Source: Convolutriloba macropyga (taxonomy: Eukaryota). Taken from it: 64,000 bases of DNA. The position numbers and the translations under genes were made by a program. How positions within the stretch are numbered: the stretch's first letter is position 1; every line of letters starts with the position of its first letter. The stretch is from NCBI RefSeq assembly GCF_964194025.1, contig NC_134468.1, forward strand, positions 34,472,001-34,536,000, given 5' to 3'. Shown here one piece after another: positions 1 through 40,528 of the stretch. The notes under the pieces were generated by a model, which saw only the letters and a program-made list of their open reading frames with translations, did no database searches and was not told the DNA's origin.

Positions 1-817
1 TATGTCTGGTATCTATGCCGCTTGAGTCAAAAGAGCCGCAAAACCAACGTAATTGCTGTTGGGTTGCTTTACACATAGTTGCTTCTAGCTTAACTTTATA
101 AATTCTTTAGTAGAGAGTGACTCGTGCTTGATTAGTGCTAATTTTATTAGGGCAAATTTCGCAGGGTGCTACTTTGTTGAGAGAATACATCTGATTTGAG
201 ATCATTTTTGAGCAATCAAAGTAGTTAATATGAAGTTTTGGAGCTGTATTTTCATAGATACTCATCTTTTCAATTGGTCTGGCGTCAACGAGAGACGTTA
301 AGAGTAGTAATACAAGAATTATAATAAAGATGAAATACTTTGCATAGCAAGCAGTTATAACACAGAGAAGGGCAAGAGGTATTATAGCAATTAGTTTAAG
401 AAACAGGACAGAACGAATTTGGTTTTCTATGTAGGTTATAAAATATTCTACTTTTGAAAAAAGAGGTTTCTTATCAGTAATTTTTTCTTTAAAGAACTGG
501 TCTATATTCAGTGATAGCGGTGAATGGTTGATAATTCTGGACCATATTTCCGAAATTGATGGCTTGTCAGGAGGCTCTAACGATTTAAGATACGGAATTT
601 CTTCAGGTAAACAATTGTTTCTATTTTTGACACATTCTATGAAGTGTGGGTGAGAATCGGTATATTCAAGGAGTATCTCTATTCTAATTTCGGATTCATT
701 ATCAGTTGCAACAGGCGAGAACATGGTTAAGCAAAGTAACATAAAAAGAAACATTTTGTAACTTACGTTTATTACTTCGTCTATTGTTGGTGACTTTTTG
801 ATTTCTCCGTCTTCCAT
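1..817 (-). pseudogene. Envelope glycoprotein-like ORF (class III, chuvirus G/gB-like N-terminus), one in-frame stop at 107-109, continues off window
   Basis: Hydrophobic segments and an internal signal (IILVLLLLTSLVDA|RP) are followed by YFDCSKM..YSLNKVAPCEICP..ARVTLY*RIYKVKLEATMCKATQQQLRWFCGSFDS, read manually through the stop. The Cys spacing fits the [Y/F]DC..SL...C...Q...C...CG pattern of chuvirus-like glycoproteins. Confidence 0.65.
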
Positions 818-820
818 TTA

Positions 821-1913
821 TTAAACGAATACAGTATAAGGTGCGTCTAGAAAATCAAATTAATATTATCAGTAAAAGTAATCTGATATTTTAGCGCATA
901 AACGTGAGTTGGATTATATGGTACCCAAAAGACGACAAACTTTGCGTTTTTTTCTGATGTTACAAAGAACAAAGAATGCAACTATTCTCTGTTGATTAGA
1001 AACAAAACACTTGTCAAATGTTACAGTTTTATTTCCGAATTTCAATATTTTCTGTAGGAGGAAGATTTTAGTATAAGATAGCGGATCGTATGCAAGGGCA
1101 GTAAGAACTTGTGTTTCAAGGGAAAATGGTAACATAGATTAAGGGTCTACAGTAAAGGGAGCTTCAATGATATCAAGCTTTATTTCGTCTCTATTGTTCA
1201 ATTGAAAATGAAAGCGTTCAATATGTTCTGGTTTATTAGGGGTCCAACAAAAAATAAATTTCTAAGTTTACAAATTGGTCTTTAACGAAGAAAATAACAA
1301 TGTTTTCTTTATATGAAATATACGATCGATAAATTGTGGCTGACTTGTTGTTATACTTTAAAGTTTCATGCGGGATGTTATAAGGGCTGTATGAAGTTGA
1401 GAAAATTGTTCTTGAAGCTATAATCCAATAATCGTTTAGCGGAATATTCATTGATCGGTTGGTTGTTTGAAAACTAAACAAGGGACATCTAAAATGTCTA
1501 AGTCAACTAAACTTGAAGAATGAATTTGGATTAATAAGCTGTTAAGTTGTTGAGGGTTATATTTTCCCCAGAAGACAGCAATAGGATCTTCGTTAGAGTT
1601 AGAATTGGTAGCAAAGAACACTGTAATTCTTACTTCGTTAGAAATTTGACAGCCAGTTAGGGTGTTTAGTTCACTATTGAATTTTAACTTCTGATTTGTT
1701 TTAATCGAAATTTTCACAAGTGTATCAGGGTTGATAAAGAGAAAAATAAGAAAACCGTTTTGGTCGAATGAGACCTTGGTCATAAATTAGGATTGATTAG
1801 CTTTAAGGGGGTTAACTGGTGATGAAGGTGTTAAATATGAGTAGTGTTTGTTAGAAACTTCCTGAATTGTCAGTCCTGTACTATGTTCAATCTGAATGGT
1901 TATGAACTCCTTC
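821..1913 (-). pseudogene. Accessory ORF of three ~105-aa tandem repeats of unknown function (frameshifted)
   Basis: Joining ORFs 1448-1783, 1236-1481 and 914-1135 with intervening frames gives three aligned units: LKFNSE..CQISNEVRITVFF..FWGKYNP..LDILDVP / LKYNNK..SYISYKENIVIFF..KPEH..LDIIEAP / LKFGNK..CFVSNQQRIVAFF..FWVPYNP..DFLDAP. It ends TAA TAA ATG into the env ORF. Confidence 0.75.

Positions 1914-2129: not shown

Positions 2130-2132
<3 letters not shown>

Positions 2133-2173
<41 letters not shown>
2133..2173. repeat. (GA)n microsatellite
   Basis: About 20 perfect GA units. Confidence 0.98.
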
Positions 2174-2175
<2 letters not shown>

Positions 2176-2589
2176 AAGTTAGAGCTGAATTTGAGAGCGG
2201 AAGAAGTAATTGATTTCAGAAAGTAACTGAGAAAAGTGATTTTGATATTGGGTAAGGCTCTTAAATAGTGGTTCTCAGGGTTTAGTTACCAAACTCTGTG
2301 TGCTCAAATATGATTCGCTAATAACTAGCATTGGCTCAAGCCATTTAGCATGGTACTAAACTTGTGATATGGCTAAGATGTTGCGCTAAGTTCTCTATTT
2401 CTGTCATCAAAATTGCGTTTCTTAATAGAATTTGGGCAAAAATTATGTGTTTTTCGACCATTCTTGCAAAATGAAAATGAACAGTGTATCAAGTGTTGTC
2501 TGTCGATAGTAGCTAAGTCAAAAGGTGGCATAACATCAAATTGAATATATCTTATTTTGTCTTTTACTTCATGAAGTTACGAATTCAAC

Positions 2590-2970: not shown

Positions 2971-4171
2971 AAATTGTTGCTGTTCTAAAGCTAAAGCTTC
3001 AGATTTAATAATCGCTAAACTGAACATTGTATGGTCAAGTATTATGTGTATGAGACAGTGGAAAACAATTTGTTTTGAGTTTAACTAATTTTATCTTGGT
3101 TTTTCTAAGCAAAAATGATAATTTCACCATTTTTCAAGTCCTTGTTATAAAATTGTGACAACTTTTTGGACGAAAATGAAAATTCTACTCTGAACACATT
3201 AACTACTTTTACTTTGTATGTTCTACAACGAAATTTCTTTTATCTATCGCGTAAAACATCTAAATGGGAACACTTTAAAGATTTTAAGGTAACGATAAAG
3301 AAAAGTTTCATTTTTTTCTATAAAACTTTTGCGAACTCTCTTTCTTTTCAAAAGTCAGTTTGTATTTCAGGGTTTATCTACTAATCACAGATTTTACTTT
3401 CGAAATCTGAAAGTTTGAACAAAATTGTAATTGCTAATCACAAGCGCGAACAGAAATAAAATCAATAACTTAAACTTTTTTGGGATTTATACTACAGTAT
3501 TTCTAATTTGTGTGTTGTAAACTTTTGTGAACTATTAGAATAAGCATGCATTTGAGCGACTATGTGGTCTGAGTGGATATATTCATCAAGTTATAGCTCT
3601 TTCTGACAGTTGTGTAAGGTTTGCGCTTAGGTGATATGATTCCTACGTGGGGAATTTGCGGTTAGTTAATTGTTCATAAGTACTTTAAACATTGCTTGGG
3701 TCCCTAAGCTAGTAAGGTTAGCTCTTATCTATTTGGGCTGCCTTAATGTGTTTTTCCTTTAGCTTTGCTTTGGGTAACATGTGTTTTCAAGGGTTGTACA
3801 TGTATAGAAGTTATGTGTGTGTAACAGCTTGCAATGGTGATTAATCGCGTACTTTGTGTAAGATTTGTGGCTATTTGCTTTTTGCCTTTAACTCTTGTTG
3901 ACTATAGTTGATTTCTCTTACATAGTAAATTCTAAGCTTTATTTCGTTCTTGACCATTAATTCCATTTTCACTCTTTATTTCTTTTAACTTGTATTTTTT
4001 TCTTTTAGTTTCTTTCATAATCTTAGTTCCTTAATTTTTTTCGTCTATTTGTATCTTCTTAACTTTCTTTCTGTAATTCCTTAATCTTTCTGATTTTACA
4101 ATCATGAATTGGTACACCGTTAATTATCTGCGGGCAAATGAGGAAAATGTGGATGCTCTGAATTCTGCCCG

Positions 4172-4876
4172 ATGGAGCGTTGCTGTGCGGGGGTTAGAAT
4201 TTTGAGTGAAGCGCTTGAGGGAGCTCGGAGGGAGCATTATCTAAACTTCCTCTATTCCGATGTTGAAGGACTAGGCGCAGAGGATTTCCTGTTCTTCTTT
4301 TCCGAGAGCCACAGGGTTTCATCATTGGTGTTAACTGATGATGAAATTGATGGGATACTCCGGGCGAGAGTGAGTTTTTCGCTTTGGGAGAGGAGATTCA
4401 CCCAATGCGTGTCAGAAGACACGCATGAGATGATCAAATTCTTTCTGGGGGATGATGTGAGTTTACTTTATTATTTTTTTGTAATTTTTAATTTCTGTGT
4501 TATAAACTCTAAATGACAATTTTTATTTGGTTATTTGAGGCTTTCGTCCGATAAAAGAAATATAATGTTATAGGATATAGTGCGTAAGAATGAGTTTGAG
4601 TGGGTAAATTTAAGGGGCATTTGTTGGTTTTAGTTCTTCACAAATTTGTACGCAAGGCGAAGGAATGAGGGGGTCGACGAGTGGTGGGACAGGCAAGTGC
4701 TGTTCGAAACACGCTCGTGGGCGTTGCAAAGGGCCTGGTGGGATCTGCAAGTGGGGCCGATATTGCAGGACTGCTATTTGCAATTGAAAGGGTGGAAATA
4801 TGCTAAATGTTTAGCATTCGAAGAGGAGACTCTAATGTGCCGTGTGATTAGGGGACTTTCGGAAAAAATTTTCTGA
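4172..4876 (+). CDS. Antisense two-exon gene of unknown function (exons 4172-4456, 4634-4876; a possible older start at 4104 is frameshifted)
   Basis: A GTGAGT donor at 4457 and a TTTTAG acceptor ending 4633 join ORFs 4172 and 4646 in phase 0 (..KFFLGDD|FFTNLYARRR..). Exons are GC-richer than the AT-rich 177-nt intron. Confidence 0.65.
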
Positions 4877-5169
4877 GCTGCTGAGCAAAATTTCTATTGG
4901 TTTGTGCGTTTATATATCTTTTTGTATATTTCAACTTTACTATTTTTATTGTTTTCTTGAGCGCGGTGGCGCTTTTTAATATAAAAGGTATTATTTGAAA
5001 GAGATTTTTGTCTCTATTTCTTTTTGAGTTTATGTAGCAGGTCAAAAGGAGTAAGTTCACCAAAGAATGTAGGTGCTTTTCTATTACGCTGAGGTCTGCT
5101 CAATACTTCGTTTGCGTATGGTAAAATAGATATATTAGGTGAAGCTGTAGGTGTAGAACTATAAGATAA

Positions 5170-6965
5170 TCATGTGGGGCTACTATGCGTTGCTTGGGGG
5201 AATAATTTGCGTGTAGCTTTAAATTTGCTAGTGTTATCAGATGGGGTAGAAAATTTTTCTTGCTGTGGGCTATTAGGTGAATACATATTTTGCATAGGGT
5301 AGGGGTTGAAATGCGTGGGTAGAAAATTAGAAGAGCTTGTGCCTTGAATATGTGTAGTGTTATCTACTCGTGTTTGTAGCGATTCTAAGCCTGAATCTTT
5401 TGTTGGGGTAGCCTCAACGTTAAATGTTGGCTGTAGTGTATTACTAGGATTAACAGTATGTTGTGTTTCTACTAAGGGCCACTGCGAAATAGCAATATGT
5501 TGTGCGCTTCTTTGAGCTTTAGATCTGGCTATATTACGCTTATTATATTGAGTATAATAATCATAAGTGTCGTCTGGAACTATATAGTTCAAAACTAACT
5601 CTTGTATTTTCTCTTCTTTCGGGTAATAAGGTACTATATGATTTCTATGCACGGTTTTCTTCTCATTTGTTTTATCATGTTGTATTTCATACGTACTGTT
5701 AGTTAGCATTCGTTCCACTGTTTAAGGGCCTGAGCGTAGCTCTTGTAGCTTTTTAGACTTTAGTAGTCCTTTAGGGTGATTTTCTAATAATACTTTGCTA
5801 CCTTCAGGTGTAGGCTTTCCTAGTTTAAATCTATTTCTATTCTTGTGTGCTTTATTCGTAGTTTGTCTACATTTAGTGTAGGTATTCGAATATATGGTTT
5901 TAAACGTATTCTCTCGCTTCAACATTTCGTTAGATAATCTGTTTTGTAGTAATTTCTCTATCTTTTTGTTATTACAAGTTTCTTCACTATGCGAGTGTGG
6001 TGGTAGATTACTACAATACTCTGATGTGCATTTCTTTTGATTATCTTGTATTAGTCCTAGCTTTAGTGATAAGGGTATTTGCGGTTTCGTTCCGAATAGT
6101 ATTTCATAAGGGGTATATCCTAAACTGTAGTTTACTGCGGTACTGTGTAAAAATGCAAATTTACTAGAGTTCTCGGACAGTTAGATGACTTTTACTAATA
6201 AAATGTCTTAGGTAATTAGTTAAATGTTTATTTTGTACTTCTACTTTGCCGTTAGTCCATGGTGAATATGCCGTTCGGGGGCATAGTGTAATTCCTATTT
6301 CGTTTGTATAGTGAACAAAATCATTACTAATAAAAGCTTTGCCGTTACATGTACTATTTGTTGCGGTATACCAAATATAGTTATAAATTTCTCTAGTTGA
6401 TTTACTGTTTCGAGAGCTTCAGCATTCTTGCTAGGGTATACTTGTATAAATCTAGTGAAAGCATCTAATATTACCGGGCAAATTCTATTTCATTTACTAA
6501 GTGGTCGTTGTGGACCTTTTTGATCAATATGAGGTGTATGTAGGGTATAGCTTCTAATTGTCCCCATGGTTCTAAGGGTGCTTCGTTCAAATCTTTGCAT
6601 GCTGACTTATTAGTTTGGCAACTTAAGCAATCTAAAATTAACATTTCAGTCCATTTAAACATACTGGACCAATAGAAATATCGCTTAACTCTATTATAAG
6701 TTGTGCTTTCTGCTCTGTGACCACTAAGTTCATGCGTATGTGCGACTTCGAATATCTTTATAAATAATAAAAGCGCTGCACATATCCTAACGTCAAAAGA
6801 GCCGTCTTCGCAAGGTTCGGAATAACAGAGTAAATCATATTGACTCTCTAGAAACAACAAGTTGGATTTATTTCTATAAGTTTGTAATGCTTCAGATTGT
6901 TTAATAATGTAGTCCTTTTCTGGATCTTTGCCTACTTTTAACCAATCTCTAACTTTATCTATCAC
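5170..6965 (-). pseudogene. Gypsy integrase (H2C2 zinc finger, DDE core, GPY/F C-terminal region), frameshifted
   Basis: AHTHELSGH...CLSC zinc finger. Core fragments DAFTRFIQVYP and RTAYSPWTNGKVE lie in shifted frames at ~6200-6470. C-terminal LRSGP*TVERMLTNSTYEI..VHRNHIVPY. Confidence 0.93.
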
Positions 6966-7265
6966 GGAGTCGTTTATTTGTTCTTCAAGAATATTATCAG
7001 TGTCAAGATTAGCGTTTTTCGCAAAATCTGTAACTTTAGCTATTAAATCTAATGTATCTGTGTGGACATCTTTTTCTGAGATGTTTTGATAAGCTTCCAG
7101 TAAAATAAGTTTCTTAAATTATGTACGTCTATAATAGTCGGCTTTAGCAGATTCTAATTGTTCAATAAGTGAGTTTTCAATACTACCTTCTACTAAGTCT
7201 AACCAATCTTGATCGTCGTAACCTTCTCGACCACCGCTTATTTCAGCTTTTTCTTCTATCTCGGA

Positions 7266-9080
7266 TTAGTAGTGATTGTCATACTCACTAGTTAGTTCTG
7301 AAGTTAATTTCTTTATTTGAATTATTTGTGTGCCGTAGCGAAAACAATCAGAAAAACTGTGTATAGCATTACAATGCTCATCTATGTAGTCTGGTGAATC
7401 ATATTCACTAAAGTCACCTTCATCGTTAATATTAATTAATTTCTTTCTTTCGTCTTTGTCCTGAGCAATAATTGGATAACAGTCGTTAGCTGTTGCGTCC
7501 TTGTCGTCTTGATGCAATACAGAATAGTTAATTTCTTTTCCGTTAATTTGAAACCTTATATCTTTAGGTATTTCTTTGTGCTCTAGCTGGTAAAGTTTAG
7601 CATCTGCTAAAGTAACGTTTCGGCTAAGAATGTCAGTGTATATAATTTGCAAGTTTTGGAACATAGTTATTACAACTTGATACTTAAAGAAACGATTTGA
7701 CATTTGTCCTCGTCGTGACCAAAGAAATAGAATTCTTCTGTGATCACAATATAGATAAATTGGAAAAGGGGATACAATAACATAAAATTCATATGATTGT
7801 AATGCAGATATTATTCCGCATAGCTCTCTATGTTGAGGGGACATCTTTTGTTCAGCCTCAACAAATACCATCGAGTTTGCTGAAATCATACGTTTGCTAT
7901 CAGGAAAATCTTGTATAAGAACACAACCTGTTCCTAAGTTAGATGAATCAGCATGTATAAGAAAGGGATAGTCATTAGAGGGAAATGCGTTAGAAATGTC
8001 GTGACAGAATCTTTGTTTAAGGTGTGTGAATACCTTTTCGTGTTCAGGTAACCACTTGAATAATGTTGTATCTTTAGTTAAGTCATATAGAGGTTTTGCA
8101 TCTATGTGAAAGTTCAAAATATTGGTGTGATAGAAACCCATCATTCTTAAAACTCTTGAAATTTCGGTTTTTGATTCTGGCGTTTTTAGGTTTCTAATAC
8201 CCTCTATGCGCGAAGCAATAGGCGATAGTCCGTCTTTAGATATAAGGTGTCCTAGAAATCTCACTTTTCGTAAGAAAATCACTGTTTTGTCGGGGCTGCT
8301 TTAAGGTTTGCCTTTCGAAGCAAAGAGTGATACTCTTTTACTATTGTGAACTTTTCTTTTTATCTTTAGCTTGTAATAATGTATCGTCTATGTATGTTAT
8401 GGCTTGTTTACGTTTTATAAGTGGTCCAAATGCATAACGCATAAGTTTGCTGAAGAAACTGGGTAATGGCTAAAGACCATAAAATCCTAATTGATAAGTG
8501 TACAGTCTGCCTCCTACAATAAAACTTGTAACCTTCTGTGTATCTTCTGTTAGTGGTACTTGATTATAAGTTGATGATAAATCACTACTTGTAAAAATCG
8601 TTCCGGTTATTCTTGTCATTAGAACGTTTAGTGGTTCAAGTGGCCAAATAGAATTACTTATATCAGTTATAGAGTTTAGGTATCTAGCATCAATGACTAG
8701 GTTTACATAATCCTTCTTAGGTAATATGATAACGGGATTGACAAACCAACTATTCATATCATCGTTCTCATTGAGCTCTCTGATTATTCCCGCTTGAATT
8801 AATTCATCCATTAATTTTTTCTAATTTATCTCTGAGATGAATGGGTATTTTGCTAGGTTGTTGCTTTTTAAAGGTAGCGTCTTTCTTTAGGGGTAAATGA
8901 AACTTATGTGTAGTTCTGCCAATATTTTACTTATGATGTGAATAGACATCATTATACTGAAGTATTATTTCTATCAACTCAAGCAATTCATCATCAGTCA
9001 GAGCACTTTGTGTGAAATCAAAATTATCTAAGAACTTTTCTAGATATTCTATGTCTTGGACTATATGTCTATTTTGTTGA
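7266..9080 (-). pseudogene. Gypsy reverse transcriptase and RNase H, frameshifted
   Basis: RT motifs NPVIILPKK..LVIDARYLN, DLSSTYNQVPL, ITYIDD (~8383-8400) and VRFLGH. RNase H motifs IHADSS..G.GCVL, RELCGI and YCDHR. Confidence 0.96.
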
Positions 9081-9081
9081 A

Positions 9082-9790
9082 TTACAAAATCACTAACCGC
9101 TTTTTTATGAATCGGTTGCTTTGTAGTTTATCTCTAAATTTATGAAACTGGTCATTGACTCTAGGTCTACATATTTCTTTGGCCTCGGTAGAGAAGTCTG
9201 TGGCTAATTCTCTCTCATCTTCTTTGCATTTTTCTATTAACTCACTTTCAATAACTTCGAGCACCTCTCTCTGTTCTAGTGTATTGGTTTCTACGTTTTG
9301 TAGTTTATCAATATCATCTTTGCTTGTATACACATAGATAGTTATTCCTGAGTTCTTAAATGTTTGTTCAATTAGAGAAGATATCTCTCTCCAATCCATT
9401 CCGTCTAAACCACAAGCTGTTTTTGGCATCGCTATAAAGCGTAAACTTAGTCCTAGTGCGTGATCTCTCATAGCAAGTAGCGTTGTTTTGATTTTATCAG
9501 TTGTTGGCTTCCCATAAAGAGTAGCCTTAGTGATGAGATTATAAACTAGGTTATTATCTGCTCTGAAAGTTATTATGTCACCTATATCACAGTTCCTACT
9601 TTTACAGTAGTCCTTTAATAAGGGTATTCTTTTGGAGATTGTGTTAGCAAAAGCTTTTTTCATTTCTGCATCTGAGGATATTTTGTGCGCTATAGGCATA
9701 TTAGAATCAAATATAGATTGGGTACGAAAATCTACATATCTAATGCAAGACTTAGTTTGAATTTGCTGTCCTTCAATAAATCCGTCGTTT
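9082..9790 (-). CDS. TARG1/OARD1 (Poa1p-like) macrodomain segment of Pol (domain ~9325-9744)
   Basis: IAHKISSDAEM..A, VYNLITK...KPT, AMRDH, IAMPKTACGLDGMDW and F..SGITIYVY match the human TARG1 motifs (LAHCISEDCRM, YYLITK..KPT, MPRIGCGLDRLQW, ITVY). It is contiguous, via one frameshift, with the RT N-terminus. Confidence 0.92.
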
Positions 9791-11825: not shown

Positions 11826-12129
11826 ACAGAAAGGAGGCATTTAAAGAGTCTTGGTTTTTTCGTGAGTCCTCATGAGCTTCTTAAACTACAAGGGAAAACA
11901 GTTTTGACTGTTTTTCTTGCAGAATAAGCAAAAATGGAGGCTCTTTTTTTTCCAAGACATGATATATAGCTAAAATCTAAAATCCCGGATAAGCCAGGAA
12001 CATTATAGAACATCATAGAAGAAAGAAACAACGCACAATTAAAATACAGCACATGGGAGAAGGTGCCTGTAAGGGCACAAAGGGATGGACATTTAACAAA
12101 AAATCGGTTTTTTTTTTTAAAAAAAATTT

Positions 12130-15100
12130 TAGCCCCCAAAACTTTAACGAAGACGCCAAACAAAAAAAGCCGGTGCCTTACAATCCTTATGGATAGAAGG
12201 CACTGCCAAAACAGTATGGGTAACATTGAATAACTAATTGACCCAGAAGGTCCCATTATATTTTTTAAATAAAATTGACTTTTTGAGAAACTCTTGACGA
12301 AATTGCAGAACTTGAACTTATACATCAATTATGGGAAATTTTCTTATTCCATAGCCAACGTTAGCCTAATACACGATTGTCATGTCAATTTGAGCAACCA
12401 AAGCCCAGTAGTAAAGAAATGAGAACAATTTTTACATAAAAAACGGTCGAAAAATCTGCGTTTCCGAACTACACACTTTTTTATCTATCAAATTTTAAGC
12501 TTTGACCCAGAAGAAAAATCTCTGGGTGTTTTACCATCCTTATGGATAGGAGGCATCGCCAAAATAGTATGGGTAGTATTGAACAGCTCATTGAGACAAA
12601 AGGTCCTATTATATTTTTTAAATAAAATTGACTTTTTGAGAAACTCTTGACGAAATTGCAGAACTTGAACTTATACATCAATTATGGGAAATTTTCTTAT
12701 TCCATAGCCAACGTTAGCCTAACACACGATTGTCATGTCAATTTGAGCAACCAAAGCCCAGTAGTAAAGAAATGAGAACAATTTTTACATAAAAAACGGT
12801 TGAAAAATCTGCGTTTCCGAACTACACATTTTTTATGTATCAAAAATTAAGCTTTGACCCAGAAGGAAAATCTCTGGGTGTTTTACCATCCTTATGGACA
12901 GGAGGTTTCGCCAAAATAGTATGGGTAGTATTGAACAGCTCATTGAGACAAAAGGTCCTATTATATTTTTTAAATAAGATTGACTTTTTGAGAAACATTT
13001 GGCGAAATCGCAAAACTTGATGTTATATACCACTTCTGGCAAATTTTCTTGATTCATGGCCAATAATAGCCTAACGCATGCTTGTTATTTTTTTTTGGGC
13101 AGCCTAGAACTAGTAGTAGAGAAATGAGTCAAATTTTTACATAAAAAACGATCTAAAAATTAGCGTTTCCGACCTAAACCTGTTTTACGTAACAATTTTT
13201 TAAGCATTGACTGAAAAGAAAAAACTCTGGGTGTTTTACCATCCTTATGGATAGGAGGCACCGCCAAAACAGTATGCGTAGTATTGAACAGCTCATTGAG
13301 CCAAAAGGTCCTATTATATTTTTTAAATAAGATTGACTTTTTGAGAAACATTTGGCGAAATCGCAAAACTTGATGTTATATACCACTTCTGGCAAATTTT
13401 CTGGATTCATGGCCAATAATAGCCTAACGCATGCTTGTTATTTTTTTTTGAGCAGCCTAGAATTAGTAGTAGAGAAATGAGTCAAATTTTTACATAAAAA
13501 ACGATCTAAAAATTAGCGTTTCCGACCTAAACCTGTTTTACGTAACAATTTTTTAAGCATTGACTGAATAGAAAAATCTCTGGGTGTTTTACCATCCTTA
13601 TGGATAGGAGGCACCGCCAAAATAGTATGCGTAGTATTGAACAGCTCATTGGGCCGAAAGGTCCTATTATATTTTTTAAATAAGATTGACTTTTTGAGAA
13701 ACATTTGACGAAATCGCAAAACTTGATGTTATATACCACTTCTGGCAAATTTTCTTGATTCATGGCCAACGTTAGCCTAACGCACGCTTGTTAAATCAAT
13801 TTGAATAGCCTAGACTCAGTAGTAAAGAAATGAGACTACTTTTTACATAAAAAACGTTAGAAAAATTAGCGTTTCCGACCTTCACATGTTTTATGTAAGA
13901 ATTTTTGAAGTATTGACCCAAACGAAAAATCTCGGGTAGTTATAACATCTGTATGGATAGGAGACACTACCAAAACAGTATGGGAAACATAGAACAACTA
14001 ATTGACTCAGCAGCTCCTATTACATTTTTTAAATACGATTGGCTTTTTGGGAAACATTTGACGAAATCGCAAAACTTGACTTTATATATAAATTATGCAA
14101 AATTTTCTTGATTCATGGCCAATGCTAGCCTAAAGCACGCTTGTTATCTCAATTTGAATAGCCTAGATTCAGAAGTAAAGAAATGAGACTAATTTTCACA
14201 TAAAAAACGATCGAAAAATTAGCGTTTCCGACCTACACCTGTTTTGTGTAACAACTTTTTAAGCATTGGCCCAAAACAAAAAAATCGGGTTGCTATAACA
14301 TCCTTATGGATAGGAGGCACTGTCAAAAAAGTATGGGTAACATTGAAGAACTCCTTGAGCCAGAAGGTCCTATCAAATTTATTAAATACGATAGACTTTT
14401 TGAGAAACAATTGACGAAATCGCAAAACTTGATGTTATATATGACTTCTTGAGAATTTTCTCAACTCATGGCCAACGTTAGCCTATTGAACGCTTGTTAT
14501 ATCGCTTTGAGCACCCTCGACTCAGTAGTAAAGAAATGAGACTAATTTTTACATGAAAAACGATCGAAAAATTAGCGTTTCCGACCTACACCGGTTTTGT
14601 GTAACCATTTCTTAAGCAATGGCCCAAAAGAAAAATATCGGATTGTTATAAAATCCTTATGGTTAGGAGGCACTGCCAAAACAGTATGGGTAACATTAAA
14701 CAACTCCTAGAGCCAGAAGGTCCTATTAAACTTTTCAAATACGATTGACGATTTGAGAAACAATTGACGAAATCGCAAAACTTGATGTTATATATCACTT
14801 ATAGGAATTTTTCTTGATTCATAGCCAACCTTAGTCAAACGCACGCTTGTTGTATCGCTTGGAGCAGCCTAGACTTAGTAGTCGAGAAAAAAGAAGGCAT
14901 TTTAAACAGAAAACAGACGATATTTTTGCGTTTCCAAACTTTACATTTGTAATGCAGCATTTTTTCAAGCATTGAAACCTAAGCAAAAACTTTTGGTTTG
15001 ATGCAATCCATATGGATAGGGCATAATACAAAAATAGTATGAGCAACATTCAACAACTCCTTGACCCATGGGGCTACATCAAAATTTTGAAAAACGAGAC

Positions 15101-16501: not shown

Positions 16502-17077
16502 TCAAAAGACTGACTCATCCATTTTTCCACAGTTCGGGCAACAAACTTTTGAATCTTTTACAGCACAGTCATCGCAGATCACATCACAGCATTGAGCGCA
16601 AAATGAGAAACCCATGTCATGCAAAAACCGATCTGAACAACTTCCACAAATAATCGCTATAGCTGGCCTTGGATTATTGGAATTCGCAGCCAGAAAGTGT
16701 CGAACAAAGAGGTACTTCTCCGCAAACTTCTGCCACCAATCATTTCCAGCTCTTTCGTTTTTTGTCCAACTCGGAGGCATCGAGACCCCTGACCTCAGAC
16801 CCATCTTATACGCTGCTTCTTTAACATCTTGCGCAGACTTTGCGTAGAGGACTACGTCGATCAGCAACTTGTTAATCACACTACGCGGAAGTACGCAGGG
16901 CCTTCCTTGCTGTAAGTCAACTTTTGACACGTGGCGTCTTAATGTCGATCTTGGAACACAATGTTTCTTTGCGGCCTTCAGCAACGGAATCCCTTTAGTT
17001 CTTACATCTTTAACAGCGGCGTTTAAATCAGAATTGGAATATTTCTCAGTTGTTTTTCGAATGTATTTTTGAGGCAT
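16502..17077 (-). CDS. Pipsqueak/CENP-B-type HTH protein with C-terminal Cys-rich zinc finger
   Basis: MPQKYIRK..YSNSDLNAAVKDV..LLKAAKKHCVPRSTLRRH (HTH_psq) and AGNDWWQKF (CENP-B/Tc5 HTH end), then CGSC..CAQC..CDDC..CPNC. No DDE domain. Confidence 0.85.
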   Translation of the reverse strand: MPQKYIRKTTEKYSNSDLNAAVKDVRTKGIPLLKAAKKHCVPRSTLRRHVSKVDLQQGRPCVLPRSVINKLLIDVVLYAKSAQDVKEAAYKMGLRSGVSMPPSWTKNERAGNDWWQKFAEKYLFVRHFLAANSNNPRPAIAIICGSCSDRFLHDMGFSFCAQCCDVICDDCAVKDSKVCCPNCGKMDESVF

Positions 17078-17205
17078 TTGACACTGAAGAAACAAAAAAA
17101 AGAAATGAGATTTTACCAAAAAAAAGAAACACTGAAAAGTCAAACATAAAAGCAACAACTTTTTCAATTTCTTCAAACTATGAGTTCAAAATTTTCTACT
17201 AAGAC

Positions 17206-20094
17206 TCAATCATGTTCAAAGATATTCACCAAAGGTACCAAAACAAGTTTTTCATTTACAGTTAATGGCAAGAGCTTTTCAATAATAGCATCCTGACTAA
17301 TAGTCTGTACATTTTCCAATTTTCTGACTTCATAAAAACTGTAAACGTCAGCCGTTGATTGAGAAGGTCTGTGCTTTTTTTCTATTTGGTAGAGCACAAC
17401 AGAAGCAAAATCTTGTTTGTCGATTGTAAAGAACAATCGAATTTGACACAATTTTTTCTCGCCGTCACGGACAAAAGAAACGAACGAGTTTCTGCACGAC
17501 GAATGAGAAATGGAATCAAGGGTAAAATTCTCAAACTTTTGCGTGGAATAAAATTGAGCAGAAAGATCTTTGAGATCAGAGGGGATTTCATGCAAGCAAA
17601 CAGCCCGTTGTTTGAAAGATTTTCTCTCCCTAAGAGACAGACACAAGTCGTATAGCGTGTCTTTTCGAGGATTTTCGCAGCAAGAATTTTTATTCCTTAA
17701 GTATCGGTCCACCAAAACTTTCAGATGACACACTGTCCCAGTGAACTTGCAACGTAGGAGGTAATTTGCCGATTCAAACATGATGGCAGAGGTGCACCAT
17801 AAAGGTCCAAAGCACCTAACCTGCCACGCTAAATGATTGAGAGAATGAATATTCGCAGAAAATACTTTGTCTGAGTGGGCTTCCGCAGTTAGAAGGTGAA
17901 ACCGTTCAATAAGATTTTCAGCCACGCGGCAGTGCTCAGAAGAAAATAAAAGCAAACGGGTGGAATAGCTCAACAAATGTAACCTCTCGTACAAACTTTC
18001 GTTGACGAAACTCCTGAAAACTGCTGGTCCCACATATAAAAGCCAAACTTTCAACTCGTTTGCTTTGAAAAACTCCAATTCATCAAGACTTCGGACCAAT
18101 CTCTTGAAATCAGAAGTCAATTGAAGAGTGGCACTGTTTTCGCGAATTTTGTTGGGATCAGATTTTGTCGATTTATCTCTAATAAGAAACAGAAGAGCAC
18201 GTGTAACACCCAGCAGCACCTGATGCATGTAGTCAACAGGAGCAGTGAGAGGTAGATTTTCGATTAATGTGGACACCGCTGAAGGCCCTTTGACACCTCT
18301 AAAAGAATCCATAGCTTGCTCCTGTATTAAGCGTATATAGGCTTCATGTTGTGCCGCCGTTCGCATCTTGTTCCTCTGGTTAGGATAATATAAACCTTTC
18401 TTGCCTTCTCCTATCGGTTTGCTTTTTATCAAACAGAGCGTACAGCCAAAATAGGCATTGAATTGTTGAATATTAAGTATGGATGCTTTCGCGGGCAAAT
18501 CCGCCACTAATAATTTGATTACAAAATTGACTTCCCAAAGAGTACCGTTCCATTCAATTGACGACTCACTTTGCAGAGTTTCTTTAATTTGGCTAAAAAA
18601 AACATTCCAGTCAGGTTTACCTCGACCGAGCCATAATTTTGCAAGAATAATGTTTGCAAACTTGCATCGTAAAACCGGAGGTAAACTAAGAATACCAAGC
18701 CATAGGGGCAACAATGATCGCTTTTTTCAATTGATAATCCTAACACCATCAGAATTCATTGACAACAAAACTGTTATTTTATTGCTCGAATCAAAAAACG
18801 GCGGGATATTTACATCTTTCAGAGGGCACCGGGAAGAATTGTACTCATATATTGAATTGAGATTCCTCTTAAGAACAAGTAAAATGTCTGATTTAAAATC
18901 TAATGTAATTAACTCGCCTTCACCACATGATAGAGTAGTCTTCAAGGCCAATTTCACGGTCTCATCAGCTTTTCGTTTCATTGACTTTAGCGAGGGAACG
19001 TAGCTTTCGGGAAATGCAGTCCGCATTAGTTTTATCCAATCGGAAGCTTCAGCGTCTGAAGTACCATGGCGGGCAATAATTTCATTCACGCAGATCGCAA
19101 AGTTCTGCTGCGAAAATGTGCAGCTTCGTTCATTAGCAGAATCACGAGCATCTTCTGAGGACGAATCTGAGACATGATCATTGATTGCGCTCAACGTGAA
19201 ACTGGGAGCCATATTTTCTACACTGTTGTTAGGCGAGGACGCAAAATTGTTTATTTGTTGAAAATCAGCCAACGAAGAACTTGTTTCACCAGAAGAGGTA
19301 TCATCCTGTGATAGATCAAAATCTGATGAACTACTGCTCTCCGCAAAGTTGCGCATTTCCAATTTTGGTCTGGGTGATTTCTTGCGACGTTTCGACCGGA
19401 GAACTGATTGTCGTCTTCGCCGGATACGAGAACTGAGCAGAATAAGTCTAGGCCTGGAGTCGCGTTGCCTCTCAGCCAAAGACACTTTAGTCTGATGTCT
19501 ATTGACATGAACACAGAGACAGTCTTGATTCCCTTCTCCGAAGAAATCATTACCATAACTAACTGTTATTTCGTCATTTTTTTCAATAGGGCAAAGTATC
19601 TCCAACTGGATACATCGTCGGGAATTGACTTCTTTCAGATCGAAACGACAGTTAGGTTTACAAGAGTGGTTGGCAAAGCGAGTAGGGCCTCACATGACTC
19701 GATCAAACTTACAGGCGTCCGTCTTTCTGAAAATTGATATGTCTTTGAAGCTCGCCAATGACTCACTTGGAATTTTTTCAATAAATCCAACTATTGATGG
19801 CAGAATTTGTAACGGTCTTGACTTCCTAGTTTGAAAGCTTTTCTCACCTACGTAAAACAAACCATATCCACCAAACCGGTCCCGTTTGAAAGAAAAATTG
19901 TTTGCCAGTGCAGTCTGATAGGCGTCACGTAACAAACCATCGAACTCGAAAAGTGCAAAATTTCTACCCAATGCTTCTCTGTATTCATCTGCCGAAAGTA
20001 TCTGTACCAAAGGTTCAACCGGATGGTTATTAACCTCAATAATTTCTTTAGTGACATGCGCATCAGCCTGCGCAAGGCTAAAGCACTTCAACAT
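17206..20094 (-). pseudogene. SET domain (Suv4-20/KMT5-like) - EnSpm/CMC transposase fusion, ~960 codons, two in-frame TGA stops (19690-92, 18727-29)
   Basis: Three ORFs share one frame. SET motifs: GGYGLF, M*GPTRFANHSCKPNC, EITVSYGNDFFGEGNQDCLC. Transposase motifs: NSDG, LPPVLR, KP, VADLPAKA, QFNAYFGCTLC, GVKG, DYMH..LGV, KANE, NIHSLNHL, GPLW..S...FES. Confidence 0.93.
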
Positions 20095-24904: not shown

Positions 24905-25450
24905 TTAATTTACATTGGGCAAAGATAAATCAACCAGATCAGGCCTAGCATCAGGAGCACTATCAAACTCCCGAACAAGATCACATCCTGCTTGTTTATA
25001 CCACCAGTCTTTCATGTGTACTGTATCGGGTAGAAAATCTTCATCAAAAGAAAAGGTGCGAAAATGATATTTAAGTTTATTATCGGCAAGTCGGTTGTTG
25101 AGGGCTCTGATGATGTCGAAAACTGCATTTACAGATGACAAGCGATTAATTATCTGCCAAACTATCAATAGAACACCATAGTTATTGCAAAAGTTCCTGA
25201 TCTGAGTGAATTGTCCAATAACACTTCTCATTTCCTCCTTGTATTGTATTGGGTCACTAGGTTTTGCCAGAAGATTGTTACCTCCTAACATCAACATACA
25301 AATATCGTGTTTCTTGATAAGCTCCTTCTTTTGCATCCAGTAATTTACGTGTGCACCTCCTTGTGCCTCGATCGTAAAGTTATCAGGGAACTGGAAAACG
25401 TCGGCAACTCTTTTGAGGTGCGAGTCCCCAATTATTAGTACTTTTGACAT
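24905..25450 (-). CDS. SGNH/GDSL hydrolase (esterase) domain protein
   Basis: Block I VLIIGDSH, block II GG, block III LGGNN, block V DTVH. Intact 181-aa ORF. Confidence 0.9.
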   Translation of the reverse strand: MSKVLIIGDSHLKRVADVFQFPDNFTIEAQGGAHVNYWMQKKELIKKHDICMLMLGGNNLLAKPSDPIQYKEEMRSVIGQFTQIRNFCNNYGVLLIVWQIINRLSSVNAVFDIIRALNNRLADNKLKYHFRTFSFDEDFLPDTVHMKDWWYKQAGCDLVREFDSAPDARPDLVDLSLPNVN

Positions 25451-25799
25451 CGTTATCTGGAAAACAAGACTATTAACTTGAGCTCTTTTTAGCTAGCGTA
25501 CTTATGGTACACACGACTGGATCATTGCATCAAAGCATATTGCGACGACTTTCTAACTCCCTTATGCTAGATGGTTTACAAAACAAGCAACAGATATACA
25601 AAAATACCACACTTCTTTTGACGATTTTTTCTCCTAACCTACCTAATTTATAGCCCTTAGGCGCCACCTCGACCCGTGTGGCTGGGACCTTGTTAAGACC
25701 TAAAAAAATAACATTATTGAGCCTATTCGTGCAGTCAAAGTTGTTAATTTCAACATTTCACATATAGAAACGTGAAACGTACCAGTCACTAACAGGTAA

Positions 25800-40306: not shown

Positions 40307-40528
40307 NNNNNNNNNNNNNNNNNNNNNNNNNNNNNNNNNNNNNNNNNNNNNNNNNNNNNNNNNNNNNNNNNNNNNNNNNNNNNNNNNNNNNNNNNNNNNN
40401 NNNNNNNNNNNNNNNNNNNNNNNNNNNNNNNNNNNNNNNNNNNNNNNNNNNNNNNNNNNNNNNNNNNNNNNNNNNNNNNNNNNNNNNNNNNNNNNNNNNN
40501 NNNNNNNNNNNNNNNNNNNNNNNNNNNN
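40307..40528. other. Assembly gap (222 N)
   Basis: Run of n. Confidence 1.

Follow-up and report, generated by a model that had tools for sequence, protein, structure and literature searches.

One edge of a 64,000-nucleotide stretch of Convolutriloba macropyga DNA, referred to here in its entirety as the window, carries an open reading frame (ORF) that raises the question of whether a retroelement of this animal encodes a class III envelope protein (env) and what kind of element it belongs to. Our overall reading, which we hold at a probability of roughly 0.7, is that the ORF represents the broken 5' portion of an env gene for a predicted class III fusogen, within an element that likely spread in enveloped form and carries about eight accessory genes. 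The ORF constitutes the 5' third of env in a decayed, 5'-truncated member of a Ty3/Gypsy family with elements of 18 to 20 kb (Table 1). Reading through its stop, as the first-pass annotation had proposed, did extend it: once the stop is replaced by X, the frame remains open as far as position 2. Env also continued in the adjoining DNA, where the same copy holds two env pieces (216 and 372 codons) and a 3' LTR lies ∼4.9 to 5.7 kb beyond position 1. A second in-frame stop falls outside the window, and env ends short of its ∼900-codon relatives. The 236 aa of the window alone yielded no fusogen match (only TMEM234, below the cut-off); a downstream piece of the same copy matched Pfam PF24664 (E 1.8e-27). 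The leading signal, small luminal domain, transmembrane segment, and internal signal described in the annotation correspond to hydropathy peaks at residues 22 to 38, 134 to 160, and 150 to 180, and a Cys-patterned ectodomain follows these segments, as judged from hydropathy and Cys conservation.

Table 1. Features of the element copy in the window
Feature	Position	Strand	Remarks
5' part of env	1..817	(-)	Acidic leader, hydrophobic segment at residues 22-38, ∼95-aa luminal module, hydrophobic hairpin at 134-180, then start of predicted class III ectodomain; ORF 817..107 (236 aa from ATG) closed by TAA stop at 107-109; gene runs on past position 1
ORF C	821..1135	(-)	103 aa in most copies; here premature stop at 914-916
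ORF B	1142..1451	(-)	103 aa; frame-shifted here; paralogue of A and C
ORF A	1448..1783	(-)	109-111 aa; open here
TATA-like TATTTAA, then CT-rich tract	2130..2267	(-)	∼475 nt before ORF A; 63/68 copies
Antisense ORF behind pol	4142..4516	(+)	10/10 copies, in strongly divergent versions
Pol remnant	4985..9774 (lower coordinate approximate)	(-)	Macro-RT-RNase H-integrase in Gypsy order; many stops and frameshifts
TARG1/OARD1-like macrodomain in pol	9313..9732	(-)	ITK and CGLD motifs retained

Pol and the macrodomain lie upstream of env on the same strand, and since the LTR of the reference element had no match anywhere in the window, no LTR boundary separates pol from env, in agreement with the annotation. 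The element is cut at about 9774, and gag, protease, and 5' LTR were found nowhere in the window. Because these parts are missing, pol is in many pieces, and private differences amount to 2.2%, versus <0.5% in the youngest third of copies, the window copy is a dead, older copy. Elsewhere in the window, diverged ∼350-bp repeats (72 to 77% alike) form an array at 11870 to 14450. Three consecutive ORFs at 16502 to 19689 (minus strand) looked by eye like an HTH/zinc-finger protein, a DNA transposase, and a SET-domain fragment, the last with an RFANHSC motif that we take as a SET-domain sign; judged by eye, this region is possibly a DNA transposon with a SET domain. A 195-codon ORF at 24905 to 25492 (minus strand) carries a GDS motif close to its first codon and appeared SGNH/GDSL-like by eye, and 40307 to 40528 is a run of N.

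A host COX1 match can be read openly under table 5 and has ATA at conserved Met positions, as suits an invertebrate bilaterian. The host genome contains at least 150 env matches (150/150 scored, 960 candidates; 69 to 84% identity), and in many of them a frame of close to 900 codons is open, so the window ORF is not a chance frame. Seventy copies were fetched, comprising 10 mapped copies and 60 picked across the match list (hand-chosen, not random), and 22 of them had an env frame of at least 880 codons. Nine copies other than that in the window, selected for long env frames and then mapped, all followed the order LTR, gag, pol, a gap of 3.9 to 4.5 kb, env (∼900 aa), and LTR, which confirms the pol-env linkage in other copies. 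These elements were 18.2 to 20.3 kb long, with a gag of 458 codons, a pol of up to 1,898 codons, an env of 888 to 902 codons, and a tail region of 2.5 to 3 kb. LTR pairs of 793 to 817 bp were 97.4 to 100% identical (9/9 copies), and 4-bp target duplications were present in all eight readable copies. The LTR ends read TGTA..TATA, a PBS-like TGGTGG follows the 5' LTR after 2 nt, and a polypurine tract is present. This combination of paired LTRs, PBS-like site, polypurine tract, and 4-bp duplication is that of Ty3/Gypsy elements (Metaviridae), with ends of TG..TA instead of TG..CA; LTRs of three families ended in TATA, not CA. One pattern search of the genome found no match between the PBS and a host tRNA 3' end. 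The family has multiplied recently.

By Pfam, pol contains protease, Macro, RT, RNase H, H2C2, and rve domains. Their order (PR-RT-RH-IN) is that of Ty3/Gypsy, and the best solved relative of pol was Ty3 Gag-Pol (E 9e-54). A BEL/Pao carrier was rejected, as a scan of the whole pol retrieved no Pao family up to an E value of 1 and Gypsy-type domains instead. Domain order, Ty3 match, and LTR pairs around env thus place env inside a Gypsy element, as the annotation had held. The end of gag covers TTTAAAC, presumably a slippery site, in a -1 overlap with pol. Residues ∼150 to 300 of pol, between protease and macrodomain, form a stretch with no assigned domain, and a distant Gypsy family gave a weak dUTPase match at this place (E 0.02).

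The assignment of env to class III (chuvirus-G/gB-like) drew on the agreement of Pfam with two fold searches. Env of a natural 902-codon relative matched PF24664 (Monjiviricetes_fusion) with an E value of 1.4e-35, and the same family was recognized in all of 96 env relatives (32 to 94% identity). The part behind the second signal was modeled from a 42-sequence alignment, giving a middling model (pLDDT 59.6, pTM 0.38). With this model, Foldseek searches of viral models ranked chu-, xinmo-, and rhabdo-like G proteins first (E 2e-30, 13 to 16% identity), and searches of the PDB returned herpesvirus gB in every row shown (best E 1.9e-13, with a TM-score of just 0.16 and an rmsd of about 42 Å). VIA comparisons gave Z scores of 7.8 for gB (rmsd 41, 342 aligned), 7.2 for Mokola G (rmsd 12.8, 210 aligned), and 6.0 for VSV G (rmsd 4.0, 116 aligned). 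A sequence search of the ectodomain against the PDB found no match at an E value of 1. Fourteen of 15 ectodomain Cys positions were conserved in at least 83% of the 42 aligned sequences covering them, and hydropathy and Cys conservation outline the class III layout of signal, Cys-bridged ectodomain, and C-terminal transmembrane anchor; an R-X-K/R-R site was absent from env. No single structural score is strong, but the lines agree, and the prediction of a class III fusogen is well supported. The ectodomain is strongly constrained (N/S 0.12 for variants in at least four copies versus 1.16 for single-copy variants, p 7e-31).

In this family, a membrane-anchored module of ∼130 aa precedes the fusogen. 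Since the nine env relatives inspected have at most one signal region and several share the same acidic leader, ∼130 residues comprising the luminal module and the first hairpin arm were likely inserted in the 18- to 20-kb family. The view of the annotation that the env ORF is a polyprotein precursor is plausible, with the sites of signal cleavage assigned by visual inspection. The module is weakly constrained, with an N/S of 0.60 versus 1.34 (p 0.014), much above that of the ectodomain (p 3e-7). In the 70-copy test, the hairpin alone (p 0.17) and the tail alone (p 0.07) were not significant. There is a considerable chance, which we put a little below even, that the module is a tolerated insert or a long degraded signal region and no second subunit; its N/S, in-frame length variants (888 to 902 codons), and absence from all relatives inspected would suit this explanation, but some constraint remains (p 7e-4 for residues 1 to 175 together), and two signals and an anchor still stand in the right order.

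In all 10 mapped copies, ORFs A, B, and C precede env and ORF284, D (105 aa), and E (108 aa) follow it, and a 42-aa membrane ORF (F) was present in 9 of the 10. ORF284 spans 284 codons and has an ATG in none of the mapped copies; a candidate acceptor lies close to its 5' end. The ORF A stop overlaps the ORF B start (ATGA) in 65/69 copies, the stop of ORF C directly precedes the env ATG (TAAATG) in 66/70, and the junction TAATCTATG was kept in 59/69, conservation for which the high identity of young copies accounts in part. The TATA-like box is a candidate internal promoter. Env and seven accessory ORFs are under purifying selection: for variants in at least four copies, N/S was 0.24 (A), 0.12 (B), 0.29 (C), 0.17 (D), 0.25 (E), 0.13 (F), and 0.32 (ORF284), with p values for these ORFs from 1e-3 to 2e-10 (Fisher tests, 70 copies). 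Single-copy variants had an N/S of 1.0 to 1.6, two- and three-copy variants were intermediate, and shifted frames (N/S 0.8 to 5) showed no comparable drop; by site weighting, the neutral baseline is about 1.2 to 1.3. Moreover, shared frame-shifting deletions numbered 0 in A to E and env, 1 in ORF284, and 10 in two spacers.

Paralogy within A/B/C and within D/E was matched by 0/500 shuffles. The link between the two groups is weaker (0/500 for A-D, 2 each for A-E and C-E, 6 for B-E, 39 for C-D, and 343 for B-D), and a profile comparison gave an E value of 0.0012 at a probability of 19%. ORF C was modeled confidently (pLDDT 88). Its fold searches, in which cystatin and KTSC folds were compared, produced no clear match (best Z 5.2; cystatins 4.3 to 5.0), and neither BFVD (at E 0.001) nor the ESM Atlas contributed a usable one. 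For ORFs A to F, the antisense ORF, and ORF284, Pfam returned nothing at cut-off. A profile search with the five paralogues against 1.84 billion representatives gave 26 matches, of which 13 were inspected and which were apparently copies of the family except for two distant ones (P0292, P0308). Joints in four contig sets were low in depth and resembled deletions among copies, and they bear in no way on splicing.

The antisense ORF is hypervariable although pol and env are near-identical between copies; in the selection count, 13 of its codons had at least 20 copies, too few to be used. One of the sister families contains a homologue of this ORF (E 6e-8). The 2.5 kb behind pol that include it are cassette-like, differing strongly between otherwise near-identical copies. 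The macrodomain matched TARG1 (E 1.3e-18) with the ITK and CGLD motifs aligned; we assume their Lys and Asp to be the catalytic residues. ITK was kept in 9/10 copies and CGLD in 10/10. With ORFs A to E and ORF284 in 10/10 copies, this match bears out the annotation's claim of a macrodomain and accessory genes in the element.

Two sister families (three copies each mapped, 12 to 13 kb) carry gag, pol with macrodomain, and env, at 57 to 59% (pol) and 45 to 46% (env) identity to the 18- to 20-kb family. They share a C-terminal portion of ORF284 (E 1e-17); ORFs A to E and the N-terminal module are missing from them. Three families have the macrodomain in the reading frame of Gypsy pol, after protease and before RT; in one sister family, it is without ITK and CGLD motifs. 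Because the sister families carry the same pol-macro-env set and have diverged in step, the comparison points to an old, vertically inherited pol-env pair, and we propose that the module and the paralogue array were later gains of the 18- to 20-kb family. The annotation had instead inferred an independent env capture and a candidate new lineage, which is not supported in view of these families and of the Gypsy elements with gB/chuvirus-type env already described in PMC13524379. The nearest structural matches, chu- and xinmo-like viral G proteins, would suit one Gypsy family having taken up a chuvirus glycoprotein independently and recently, but we regard this as very improbable: identity to these proteins is just 13 to 16%, against 45 to 46% for env and 57 to 59% for pol of the sister families with the same layout, other high-copy env clusters lie at 33 to 53% and were not found at high identity in the host genome, and ancient acquisition is argued in PMC13524379.

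A fourth Gypsy family (four copies mapped, 13 kb, 235-bp LTRs; e.g., C8:33720500-33733700) has a pol about 25% identical. Its env had no Pfam match and was placed by the Atlas with Baculo_F/Fusion_gly clusters (0.95 to 0.96, recognition below threshold), and is likely F-type. One B/C homologue stands behind this env, so the small-ORF family is common to distant Gypsy lineages. Further ORFs of this family, including an antisense one of 366 codons, have no assignment.

We propose that the element moves, or once moved, from host cell to host cell in an enveloped particle and that its accessory genes assist in this. A -1 frameshift at TTTAAAC on the genomic RNA would yield gag-pol, and a subgenomic RNA from the TATA-like box would hold A, B, C, and env one after another, ribosomes resuming translation at the ATGA, TAAnnnATG, and TAAATG junctions. 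Stop-start junctions are known from viruses and provide the model for serial re-initiation. The first signal would bring env into the ER, where the hydrophobic hairpin would anchor the module and double as second signal; signal peptidase could then cut the fusogen free, and a small membrane protein would remain. The TARG1-like macrodomain may strip host ADP-ribose marks, and the small paralogues, together with the rapidly diverging antisense protein, may counter host defence or regulate expression. Selection on env is evidence of function, not of infectivity. The element might have transposed exclusively within cells, with env and the small ORFs serving trafficking, receptor blocking, antiviral interference, or host benefit, and its very high copy number is typical of intracellular elements; we consider this unlikely, as selection acts on variants common to dispersed insertions (transposing lineages) rather than on one domesticated locus, and Cys pattern, transmembrane anchor, and tail are complete. 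More speculatively, enveloped spread could be combined with a complex retrovirus-like organization: a polyprotein env with a small membrane subunit as the fourth cistron of serial stop-restart, a new-fold accessory family traded between class III and class I env lineages, an ADP-ribose eraser, and an arms-race antisense cassette. An invertebrate Gypsy would then be a counterpart of lentiviral and deltaretroviral complexity.

Several properties have precedents. Chary and Hayashi (2026; PMC13524379) describe 1,512 env-bearing Gypsy elements, with gB-type and F-type about equally common, and report HSV/gB-type and chuvirus-like env across animals; the chuvirus-like glycoproteins adjoin gypsy pol, and the study argues for an ancient origin. 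Gypsy fragments with Jingchuvirales glycoproteins appear in PMC10084718, and precedents for large elements, fish ERV macro domains, and shared extra ORFs in PMC6431247, PMC4977317, PMC6338049, PMC12440569, and PMC5408684. The "ancient errantiviruses" of HSV/gB type resemble our family in their multicopy Ty3/Gypsy gag-pol-env within LTRs and in a class III env with conserved Cys, and those with a chuvirus-like glycoprotein have it beside gypsy pol; both env types are possible in one genome (PMC13524379). By the operational definition of that study, env lies within the LTRs and is linked to gypsy pol in 9/9 copies. In contrast to those elements, ours measures 18 to 20 kb and has a pol-env gap of 3.9 to 4.5 kb, about eight accessory ORFs, a macrodomain, and the module; the words "macro," "accessory," and "small orf" do not occur in the main text of PMC13524379. 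Its prefilters allowed gaps of up to 1 kb and regions of 10 kb, with manual extension of 3 to 5 kb, and because of these gap and size filters the 18- to 20-kb family is unlikely to be in its list.

Among other systems, the mosquito BEL-Pao element Anakin (Dezordi 2020; PMC7642597) likewise joins a chuvirus-type (Chuviridae) glycoprotein to an LTR element; in our family, domain order and best RT/IN match mark the carrier as a Gypsy, and env is distant from viral G (PMC13524379, PMC12440569). The giant planarian Gypsy Burro is similarly large, with env homology, accessory functions, and very high copy number, but its extras are domains of one huge polyprotein and its F-type env lies between gag and pol, whereas separate small ORFs surround a predicted class III env here (PMC6431247). 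LTR elements of bdelloid rotifers also share an extra ORF among distant retroelement lineages, in that case one ORF3 (GDSL, DEDDy) as opposed to a five-member family with no assigned fold (PMC5408684). Fish epsilon-like ERVs captured a macrodomain as well (PMC4977317, citing Basta 2009), but are Retroviridae with additional ORFs, whereas the macrodomain here is inside Gypsy pol. In the literature covered, with subscription journals and Repbase outside its scope, we found no description of a Gypsy element that carries a macrodomain or an ORF array of this kind, nor of the five ∼105-aa paralogues, ORF284, membrane ORF F, the hypervariable antisense ORF, the TARG1-like pol macrodomain, the ∼130-aa env module, or the conserved stop-start junctions. 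The pairing of Gypsy with a gB/chuvirus-type env is already known; for the accessory gene set, no precedent was found in that literature.

The 18- to 20-kb family is thus likely an unusually complex member of the env-bearing Gypsy group. Such elements are usually viewed as simple gag-pol-env; seven selected ORFs, a variable antisense ORF, and a TARG1-like domain imply that accessory complexity arose outside Retroviridae. Elements of this kind would probably escape published surveys that filtered for a short gap between pol and env. How a gB-like fusogen works without herpes gH/gL is a question raised in PMC13524379, and the N-terminal module may be considered as a partner for it. The accessory set offers concrete genes for the study of invertebrate defence against retroelements, through ADP-ribosylation and the targets of small proteins.
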